DNA of 26,101 nucleotides, from assembly GCA_047627095.1 (NCBI GenBank), contig JBLHSZ010000001.1, positions 1 to 26,101 of the forward strand. The letters run 5' to 3'. The notes beneath the pieces are model-generated. The model ran no database searches. It was not told the DNA's origin and saw only the letters and a program-made list of their open reading frames with translations. Numbering within the stretch: the stretch's first letter is position 1; each line of letters begins with the position of its first letter. Below are positions 21,316 to 22,866 of the stretch, one piece after another. Source of the stretch: Rickettsiales bacterium (GTDB lineage Bacteria; Pseudomonadota; Alphaproteobacteria; Rickettsiales; UBA1997). A program made the position numbers and the translations under genes.

Positions 21316-22866
21316 TCACATTTTTGCGCCGACGTGGGTTTGTTCTAGAGCTTTTGCAAGAGAAGGTTTGGTCGGAACTACAGATGGAGTTCTTGGCATC
21401 AGCTTATCCATTAGATCTGGTCCAACAACAAGCCAAGATTTTCCATCTCTATTTGGCCTGACCAATAATAACTTTTCTGCTTCTTGTAAGGCAAAATTGT
21501 AAGCATCAACATGAGATTTAAAATCAACATTTTCTGGAAGACTTTCATTTAGGAATAGAGAAAATTTCATCCTTGATTGTTCTTTTGAAGTTCTATCTTG
21601 TGGATCGCAAGGCTGTGAATAAAGACAGTGAAAAACATTATTTACGATTTTATCATCAAGTCCAAATAATCTGGTCACCTCTGTTTTAATCAGATCTAAA
21701 TTTTTCTCCAATAGCACTTCTCCAATTTCTCGCCCTTTAGTCTGTGAATTAAGGTCAATTAAGAAATCCACGAATGGTTCACTTCTCGGATGGTTAAGAT
21801 AGTTAGTTGCCATTTCTAGCAATAAGCTATTTCCTTTTAAGTGTTTCATCAAACTGTCGATCAGATCAGTTGGAACTAAATCTAAGGTTAATTTAGCTTT
21901 TAAAATTGTGAATTTCTCATTTTCAACTATTTGGTAAAAATCATTTCTAAGAAATTTGATATCATCGGGATCATCACTGCATGAATTGAAAGACTGCATC
22001 TTTAATTTCTCTAAATAATCAGTGGCGCCTTTTTCTCCTGATGTAAAAACCAAATTAACATTATCCATGATTTTACCGTGTCCCGGTAAATCCGAATTGC
22101 AAAATAATGAACTTTGAAAAGGAGGGTAGAATGAATAAAATAAAGGAATATCAAGTTTGCCATCTTCATCAAATTTTGATCGAACACAAATAAAGGTTAG
22201 ATTAACTACCCCTCCTCGTAGCTTACATTGATTAGCAATATCATTGGCTAGAGTAAGATATTCTTGATCTGATTCAGGTGTCTTTTCAGGAAGGCATTTG
22301 AGAAGTTTGGCATTCTTTAGCAAATCATCACAATATTGTTTTTTAGTGTGACAGCGCACTCTTAAATTGGTCACCTGAATTCCGTGTTTTTCAGCTTCAG
22401 AGGTGTTGTGATTCACTATTGAATCTGCCAAATAGGATTTTCCGGAGTTTTTGTCACCGTGAATTAAGGCAAAATGTGATTTATTGTTGCCATCACTTAG
22501 ATTGATGCCAAAAGTATTGATTAGCCTTGATGATTGTAAATCTGTTTTCTTCGGCGCCGACAAATGTCTGGTGTAATCTTTTCCATCAAATTTTCTATTG
22601 TTTTTTGGTGGATCAGGAGGAAAGGTTGCTTGCAGTGCTTCATTAACCATTCCGGCATTTTTTATCGCATAATATGACGTTCCCAGAACTGTTCCCGCAA
22701 CACCAAAATAAGTAAATATGTCTTTTATTCTTCCATCTTTAAAGCCCTCATTTGAGGATCCTCCGCTTAGATTTCTGCGCAATGCTACTGGGTATTGTGA
22801 TGTTTTTTGTGCGAGTGTTGAAGAAATTATTCCCGCCTTATGGAGACTGGATGGGAGAGTGCGCAT
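21316..22866 (-). CDS. Orphan 516-aa protein: presequence-like N-terminus, one TM segment and a degenerate NB-ARC/STAND-like P-loop module; candidate secreted effector
   Basis: Intact 516-codon ORF filling the gap between xth and a lipoprotein gene. Walker A GDKNSGKS (aa 137-144) follows the strand FALIH; hydrophobic IFTYFGVAGTVLGTSYYAI at aa 50-68. The CDS is well supported; the functional call is inference. Confidence 0.8.
   Translation of the reverse strand: MRTLPSSLHKAGIISSTLAQKTSQYPVALRRNLSGGSSNEGFKDGRIKDIFTYFGVAGTVLGTSYYAIKNAGMVNEALQATFPPDPPKNNRKFDGKDYTRHLSAPKKTDLQSSRLINTFGINLSDGNNKSHFALIHGDKNSGKSYLADSIVNHNTSEAEKHGIQVTNLRVRCHTKKQYCDDLLKNAKLLKCLPEKTPESDQEYLTLANDIANQCKLRGGVVNLTFICVRSKFDEDGKLDIPLFYSFYPPFQSSLFCNSDLPGHGKIMDNVNLVFTSGEKGATDYLEKLKMQSFNSCSDDPDDIKFLRNDFYQIVENEKFTILKAKLTLDLVPTDLIDSLMKHLKGNSLLLEMATNYLNHPRSEPFVDFLIDLNSQTKGREIGEVLLEKNLDLIKTEVTRLFGLDDKIVNNVFHCLYSQPCDPQDRTSKEQSRMKFSLFLNESLPENVDFKSHVDAYNFALQEAEKLLLVRPNRDGKSWLVVGPDLMDKLMPRTPSVVPTKPSLAKALEQTHVGAKM

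Follow-up and report, generated by a model that had tools for sequence, protein, structure and literature searches.

The 26,101-nucleotide stretch of a Rickettsiales genome analysed here (assembly GCA_047627095.1, contig JBLHSZ010000001.1, positions 1 to 26,101; hereafter the window) encodes on its reverse strand, at 21316–22866, a 516-residue protein, P0001, which sequence comparison places in a four-member family that is restricted to one genus and homologous to NB-ARC. Our best overall explanation, held with modest confidence, is that P0001 is a divergent, repeat-less STAND protein of the NB-ARC type that acts as a non-hydrolysing scaffold and is most likely delivered to a host. A preliminary description of this DNA had proposed a degenerate NB-ARC module at 21796–22620, which corresponds to residues 83–357 of P0001.

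The homologue search that the description recommended yields three divergent relatives, all in sister species of the same genus. Two of them, P0002 (539 residues, genome G002) and P0003 (594 residues, genome G005), were identified by a synteny look-up and occupy the same slot as P0001, between the xthA gene and a lipoprotein gene. When 126 genomes of the taxonomic family were searched with a hidden Markov model (HMM), only P0004 (538 residues, genome G006) was added, the remaining matches being Walker A noise. The slot is empty in G003, where xthA abuts the lipoprotein gene, and neither G001 nor G004 has a gene of this size beside xthA. P0002 and P0003 are 25% identical (expectation value, E, 9e-30). 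The BLASTP match between P0001 and P0003 is restricted to the P-loop region (E 0.001), and profile–profile alignment (hhalign) of P0001 to P0002–4 extends over 341 co-linear columns at 27% identity with E 1e-5, compared with E 0.09–0.6 for reversed or shuffled queries. A common design runs through all four proteins. They open with a leader that is basic and poor in acidic residues, and a moderately hydrophobic segment rich in Gly and Tyr follows. Next come a 'PPK...F' lead-in, the P-loop, the motif R-x-H-(T/S), a Walker B-like strand with invariant Arg residues on its flanks and the strand hhhT(S/T)G, before a C-terminal half that is helical and, last, a basic tail. The genome that encodes P0003 is labelled 'Lentimonas sp.' by NCBI, at odds with its placement in the genus of the window by genome search, and this label is probably wrong.

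The relationship to NB-ARC was assessed against a reference of 21 NB-ARC regions, taken from open reading frames (ORFs) that exceed the Pfam cut-off for PF00931 and occur in genomes of the same order. In hhalign comparisons P0002–4 match this reference at 98.6% (E 7.5e-16, 349 columns) and all four members together at 95.7% (E 9e-9). Control alignments, in which the four members were compared with the reversed or column-shuffled reference or the reversed query with the true reference, give E 0.4–1, so that the correspondence is beyond chance. The AAA+ protein DnaA is matched by P0002–4 with E 4.7e-5 and by the NB-ARC reference itself with E 5.8e-4, the latter being the generic baseline. On these profile comparisons the family defined by P0002–4 is specifically NB-ARC-like, and P0001 is assigned to the same type because its relatives are clearly NB-ARC-like and it is homologous to them; the assignment of P0001 thus leans on its relatives. 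Language-model features in the ESM Atlas link three members to STAND-type clusters (scores 0.91 for P0001, 0.93 for P0003 and 0.95 for P0002). The nearest cluster is NB-ARC for P0003 and P0002, and NPHP3_N/AAA_22 for P0001, for which NB-ARC appears lower down the list. Atlas models of three members, with predicted TM-scores of 0.53–0.60 and predicted local distance difference test (pLDDT) values of 0.56–0.58, resemble NB-ARC proteins over nearly the whole module (TM-score 0.5–0.61), and in the model of P0001 the match covers residues ~100–510. We are fairly confident that the fold and family of P0001 are NB-ARC-like.

The predicted layout of P0001 and of the cassette that contains it is as follows.

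21316–22866, reverse strand: whole P0001 ORF, running from a leader through the NB-ARC-like module to a C-terminal extension; the open frame is intact and near-identical in independent ice-metagenome contigs.
22612–22866, reverse strand: leader and hydrophobic segment (residues 1–85), basic, with no acidic residue among the first 39 and Gly/Tyr-rich at residues 50–68.
21967–22611, reverse strand: nucleotide-binding domain (residues ~86–300, approximate borders), from hhalign to the NB-ARC reference and sub-threshold Pfam matches.
22435–22458, reverse strand: Walker A GDKNSGKS (residues 137–144), of the generic form GxxxxGK[ST], with K139 and N140 instead of the NB-ARC-typical Gly-Gly.
22180–22209, reverse strand: Walker B strand (residues 220–229), lacking the catalytic Asp, with I226 at the reference Asp and the invariant R229 at the reference Glu/Asn/Asp.
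22036–22053, reverse strand: sensor-1 strand LVFTSG (residues 272–277), with Thr-Ser retained and the sensor Arg replaced by Gly.
21796–21840, reverse strand: GxP-like helix of ARC1 (residues 343–357), with the Pro replaced by S347 and Y356 retained.
21319–21795, reverse strand: remaining helical ARC1, winged-helix-like ARC2 and a C-terminal extension of ~75 residues with a basic tail (residues 358–516), internal borders uncertain.
21290–22976, no strand assigned: variable cassette without nucleotide similarity to the sister species, between the conserved xthA and lipoprotein genes, with flanks 81–85% identical to G002.

The motifs quoted in the preliminary description are present in NB-ARC order (GDKNSGKS at residues 137–144, LRVRCHT at 168–174, VNLTFICV at 221–228 and LVFTSG at 272–277), and we mapped them to reference columns in two ways, by a family-guided hhalign alignment and by one of P0001 alone. 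Walker A (G137, G142, K143 and S144), sensor 1 (T275-S276-G277) and the GxP block (S347 and Y356) fall on the reference columns where they had been claimed, and the Walker B strand aligns with its reference strand. The other motif claims hold in part. The lead-in string PPKNNRKFDGKD lies at residues 86–97, but hhalign places its aromatic at Y98 rather than F93; the block likened to RNBS-A, beginning LRVRCHT, is present but aligns only roughly; and the GxP-like string KGNSLLLEMATNYL occupies residues 344–357, one off the 345–357 originally given.

Column mapping bears out the description's statement for P0001: Walker A is preserved in generic form, whereas alterations affect Walker B, sensor 1 and the GxP block. 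The two Gly and the Lys of Walker A are invariant in the reference and retained in all members; G137, G142, K143 and A147 are invariant across the family. The hydroxyl position, Thr in 17 and Ser in four of the reference regions, is S144 in P0001 and Leu (GKL) in the other three members. Of the Gly pair that precedes xGK, the first is Gly in 15 reference regions (otherwise Ala in three, Ser in two and Pro in one) and the second Gly in all 21; the pair is K139-N140 in P0001, Ala-Gly in P0003 and Gly-Gly in P0002 and P0004. P0001 therefore keeps the GxxxxGK[ST] pattern. By contrast, it lacks hhhhD(D/E): the Walker B Asp, present in 21 of 21 reference regions, is replaced by I226 (by S230 if P0001 is aligned alone), neither of which is acidic, and by Gln, Arg and Arg in the relatives. 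The second Walker B position, for which the reference has Glu in eight regions, Asn in four and Asp in three, is R229 in P0001 and Arg in every member. The hhhT[ST]R pattern of sensor 1 is likewise absent, with Gly in all four members at a column that holds Arg in 16, Lys in four and Gln in one of the reference regions, next to the retained T275-S276 that corresponds to the reference T-(S/T). The GxP Pro (21 of 21) is S347 in P0001 and Lys in P0003, and is kept in P0002 and P0004; the Tyr that follows (17 of 21) is retained as Y356 and in P0002 and P0004, with His in P0003. In the relatives the NB-ARC alignment extends through the winged-helix (MHD-like) His motif, whose His, found in 20 of 21 reference regions, is kept only in P0003 and has no reliable placement in P0001. 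Judged from these alignments, motif erosion is a trait of the family rather than a defect of the P0001 copy alone, and the four members appear to have lost the hydrolysis machinery, namely the Walker B Asp and the sensor-1 Arg, while keeping the Gly and Lys of the P-loop.

The description had also noted the lack of sensor repeats and of an enzymatic N-terminal domain, and a Pfam scan agrees, finding no repeat, TIR, nuclease, CARD or other domain in any of the four members. In P0001 the NB-ARC alignment begins near residue 90 and reaches the winged-helix region, and the ~75 residues and basic tail that follow leave no space for repeats. Within residues 358–516 the family-guided and P0001-alone alignments disagree. 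Basic, disordered tails occur in members of the family; like the ankyrin-gene neighbours in sister species, they give an indirect hint of translocation into a host cell. Residues 1–85 stand in place of the usual STAND effector domain. This leader carries no Sec signal and bears a likeness to organelle-import leaders, and the hydrophobic segment at residues 50–68 has a 19-residue Kyte–Doolittle mean of 1.18, under the classical value for a membrane helix.

The P0001 gene lies among housekeeping genes in the genome of an uncultured ice bacterium (34–36% G+C; assembly 1.08 Mb in 138 contigs, 68% complete). A SecD 45% identical to that of Agrobacterium marks it as an alphaproteobacterium, and its type IV secretion genes are of the Rickettsiales style. 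Nucleotide similarity to G002 ends at 21289 and restarts from 22977, and the gene is inverted relative to the copies in G002 and G005; this break and the inversion indicate that the cassette was replaced in the window. No flanking repeats were found that would account for the inversion. Contigs of an independent ice-metagenome run, in which the gene is nearly unchanged and free of frameshifts, span both cassette junctions, so the arrangement is not a misassembly.

Exchange of the gene is also apparent from comparisons within the genus. In the closest pair by housekeeping genes, G000 and G002, amino acid identity is 86% for xthA, 88% for SecD and 81% for the lipoprotein, compared with 23% for the family protein. 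G002 and G006 are distant (73–80% identity), with synonymous divergence (dS) of 1.4–2.0 for xthA and secD, and yet their family copies share 79% identity at a dS of 0.38. These genomes resemble each other in nucleotide sequence only over the family gene (85% over 1.6 kb), which in G006 has a different location, with transposase debris on one side and an ankyrin-repeat gene on the other. The low dS, the confinement of the similarity to the gene and the different location in G006 indicate that a segment of gene size was recently transferred between these two distantly related species of the genus. The xthA/lipoprotein slot is a replacement hot spot: three alleles, mutually 23–26% identical and one of them inverted, occupy it, whereas in G003 it is empty. 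An additional ankyrin-repeat gene lies near it in G005. In G006, at L017, short broken ORFs upstream of P0004 (3136–3729) look like IS3-type transposase remnants, and an intact ankyrin-repeat gene (495–1103) lies 283 bp downstream of P0004 on the same strand.

The ratio of nonsynonymous to synonymous substitution (dN/dS) could be taken from the only close pair, P0002 and P0004. It is 0.33 overall, 0.24 in the nucleotide-binding domain, 0.42 in the helical domain and 0.21 in the winged-helix part; the hydrophobic segment is the most constrained part (0.14), and the C-terminal tail has a value of 1.27. Because the ratios within the module are low, the eroded module is maintained by selection and is not a pseudogene. 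Such purifying selection in the relatives makes the pseudo-ATPase proposed in the preliminary description a fair inference, and P0001 is probably catalytically dead yet functional.

The architecture suggested by these data comprises nucleotide-binding, helical and winged-helix domains, preceded by nothing but a basic leader and a single segment of moderate hydrophobicity. Such a protein would bind a nucleotide or phosphate ligand without turning it over, and so would not be an ATPase; the invariant Arg around the Walker B strand may substitute for Mg-mediated contacts. It would then serve as a locked switch, a STAND scaffold that offers a fixed-state platform for interaction or oligomerisation. 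Delivery to a eukaryotic host would most likely proceed through the Rickettsiales-type type IV secretion system of this genome, which carries three VirB6/TrbL-like frames of 1050–1437 residues and VirD4 (E 6e-140). In the host the N-terminal segment would direct the protein to a membrane or anchor it there. We favour a host-directed role because of these secretion genes, the ankyrin-repeat genes beside or near the family gene in two sister species (G006 and G005), the lack of a defence signature and a leader that is not of the Sec type and is reminiscent of organelle-import leaders; as a sequence-based proposal, the effector role itself is tentative, somewhat below an even chance. The ATP/ADP translocase family PF03219 has no match in the 68%-complete genome, nor in control genomes, and is therefore uninformative here. 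In its most elaborate form the proposal would posit a genus-wide pool of interchangeable, dead 'NOD-only' NB-ARC proteins, injected through type IV secretion into a protist host. Each would carry a leader like a mitochondrial presequence and a stop-transfer-like segment; imported into mitochondria or anchored there, the proteins would act as locked scaffolds of the Apaf-1/NLR type and obstruct or subvert the cell-death or immune signalling of the host, an arms race with the host driving the swapping of alleles. We regard this fuller picture as quite unlikely.

Several results weigh against the favoured explanation, and they bear mostly on P0001 itself. Aligned alone with hhalign, P0001 scores E 6e-4 against the NB-ARC reference and E 1.5e-3 against DnaA, which does not discriminate between them. 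It falls below every Pfam threshold; PF00931 does not match it even at E 10 and gives no match at the locus in a genome-wide scan, and a custom NB-ARC HMM yields a non-significant 0.2 bits. AlphaFold2 models are unusable (pLDDT 32 from the single sequence and 34 from a four-sequence core alignment), so that structural support is weak and comes from the ESM models. D233, E234 and D235 lie 7–9 residues past I226, the canonical Asp position, and P0001, P0002 and P0003 each have an acidic residue a few positions beyond the Walker B strand; these could represent a shifted Walker B motif with residual hydrolysis. Selection was measured on the relatives and not on P0001. Finally, hypervariability and horizontal transfer suit bacterial defence genes equally well. 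The claim of an NB-ARC-type STAND module accordingly stands by way of the relatives' profile, but P0001 alone is not separable from AAA+ proteins by sequence, and the structural check that had been suggested is split between the failed AlphaFold2 models and ESM Atlas models that do resemble NB-ARC proteins. That P0001 is some other P-loop or AAA+-like NTPase, with a motif order that is coincidental, would fit its parity between the two profiles, its failure to reach any family threshold and the unusable AlphaFold2 models. We consider this very unlikely, given the homology to P0002–4 with clean controls, the common slot and architecture, the clear NB-ARC character of those relatives, the placement by both alignments of the sensor-1 T-S-x and the GxP-block Tyr on NB-ARC-specific columns, and the match of the Atlas model of P0001 to NB-ARC proteins.

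Two further explanations accept the fold and differ on function. One is that the gene is a functionless, decaying remnant of a full-length NB-ARC-TPR gene that is heading for loss. Its catalytic motifs are eroded, P0001 is extremely divergent, among the six other genus genomes searched three yielded no family gene, and full-length NB-ARC proteins of 700–2000 residues are present in the order. Decay is nevertheless hard to reconcile with four intact ORFs of 516–594 codons that follow one design from start to end in genomes of 35% G+C, with dN/dS of 0.14–0.42 across the leader, hydrophobic segment and module domains, with the absence of frameshifts in independent metagenome contigs and with P-loop Gly and Lys that are invariant at less than 26% identity, and we give it only a slight chance. 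The other is that P0001 acts inside the bacterium, either as a minimal conflict or defence module in the manner of an iSTAND-like inactive sensor or scaffold, or as an NLR-like protein whose hydrophobic N-terminal helix damages the bacterium's own membrane on oligomerisation. Defence or regulation is the role of most bacterial STAND proteins, inactive STAND modules are known in conflict systems (PMC8195603), P0001 has a sub-threshold Pfam match to iSTAND, and cassette-like turnover with horizontal transfer is typical of defence genes. However, the PADLOC defence-system HMMs match none of the four members, the 26-kb window contains no MoxR/vWA pair or other conflict-system partner gene, the protein has neither sensor repeats nor an enzymatic effector, its hydrophobic segment is below the membrane-helix threshold, and the genome of the lineage is of a reduced, intracellular type. 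We think a role within the bacterium unlikely and retain the host-delivered, non-hydrolysing scaffold as the preferred explanation.

The family is missed by routine searches. Pfam returns only sub-threshold matches for P0001, at residues 125–250 and nearly all of STAND type (NPHP3_N, E 0.002; iSTAND, E 0.0075; ATPase_2; AAA_16), none for P0002 and P0004, and for P0003 only sub-threshold matches that do not include NB-ARC. NCBIfam gives nothing for P0001, and the PDB, searched by sequence and by profile, gives Walker A noise only. P0001 matches itself alone in a word-indexed search of 5.8 billion proteins and in an exhaustive phmmer search of 1.8 billion representatives; word-indexed searches with P0003 and the family alignment found no relatives beyond the query, and the family alignment has no matches in genome and metagenome contigs.

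Among known systems, the closest likeness is to NB-ARC itself (PF00931, the AP-ATPase clade of STAND NTPases, including the NB-ARC-TPR proteins of the order), with which the family shares a co-linear nucleotide-binding, helical and winged-helix module, the G..GK of the P-loop, the hhhT(S/T) sensor-1 strand, the Tyr of the GxP block and, in P0003 only, the winged-helix His. It differs in having no match to the Pfam HMM, in the replacement of the Walker B Asp, the sensor-1 Arg and, in P0001, the GxP Pro, and in its lack of TPR or other repeats, with lengths of 516–594 residues compared with open frames of 700–2000. CED-4 and WD40-less Apaf-1 are repeat-less NB-ARC proteins of ~550 residues whose activity is independent of a C-terminal sensor. 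The resemblance to them, in size and repeat-less NB-ARC organisation, is an Atlas lead at the level of the superfamily only; unlike them, the P0001 family has no CARD and its catalytic and ADP-sensing residues are degenerate. It also differs from Avs and other NLR-like antiphage STAND proteins of bacteria in having no PADLOC match, repeats or enzyme domain.

The proposal of a possibly undescribed class proves overstated, since inactive and Rickettsiales STAND modules precede it. iSTAND and iSTAND2 are inactive STAND modules of MoxR–vWA ternary conflict systems (Kaur et al., PMC7159879, PMC8195603); like P0001 they combine a STAND fold with eroded motifs for NTP binding or hydrolysis and a presumed role as scaffold or sensor. 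P0001 nonetheless scores 17.1 bits against an iSTAND (PF19995) cut-off of 24, has no MoxR/vWA neighbours and no effector-associated or Death-like domain, and comes from a reduced, Rickettsia-like genome rather than from multicellular bacteria. For the NB-ARC/NACHT proteins of Wolbachia phage WO and the rickettsial OTU proteins, manipulation of host cell death has been proposed, without experiments (PMC5062602, PMC6133264). These too are Rickettsiales STAND modules in variable, mobile regions near ankyrin-repeat genes, but they are large, multidomain proteins that Pfam recognises, and some show clear animal affinities, whereas the P0001 family consists of small, catalytically dead proteins, is restricted to a single genus and escapes standard searches. 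What is new here is a small NB-ARC family, sensor-less, effector-less and catalytically dead, that is confined to one genus, goes unseen in routine searches, undergoes cassette exchange and carries a presequence-like leader.

In the surroundings of the gene, xthA is convergent to it at a distance of 8 bp. A second xthA-like gene, 36–38% identical to that of the window, is present in five of the six other genus genomes, the exception being G001 (loci L007–L009 and L090). Upstream of P0001 lie the small lipoprotein gene and the gene for a large GltD-like oxidoreductase, and further away are genes for a hybrid histidine kinase, secD and purD. The GltD-like flavoprotein (23368–26100, reverse strand) is very large, exceeding 900 residues where it is cut by the window end and reaching 1131 residues in G002; it is fused to a ferredoxin-reductase-like NAD-binding module and has weak Pfam matches only. 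A promoter and terminator scan at the P0001 gene found nothing distinctive and no clear Shine–Dalgarno sequence ahead of the ATG, and among public sequencing runs none of RNA was listed as containing the gene. The 98-bp region upstream of the ORF contains a near-perfect palindrome of 19+19 nucleotides with no spacer (22908–22945), which could act as an operator or terminate transcription of the lipoprotein gene. Elsewhere in the window, a 527-residue CarB-like ORF (6391–7974, reverse strand) has only one pre-ATP-grasp, one ATP-grasp and the MGS-like domain, which amounts to one half of the usual large chain of carbamoyl-phosphate synthase. A 171-residue ORF (16084–16599, forward strand) has no more than a faint match (E 0.06) to the invasion-associated locus B protein IalB.

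This reduced genome offers, at the P0001 locus, a clean case of cassette replacement on the scale of one gene. The locus also illustrates that fast-evolving, effector-like genes missed by BLAST, HMMER and Pfam can be placed through synteny and profile–profile comparison. In plants, animals and bacteria alike, cell death and innate immunity are driven by STAND/NB-ARC switches. If an intracellular bacterium does use a hydrolysis-dead, sensor-less copy of such a switch against its host, this would represent a new way of tampering with these pathways and would bear on the debated bacterial links of apoptosis proteins.

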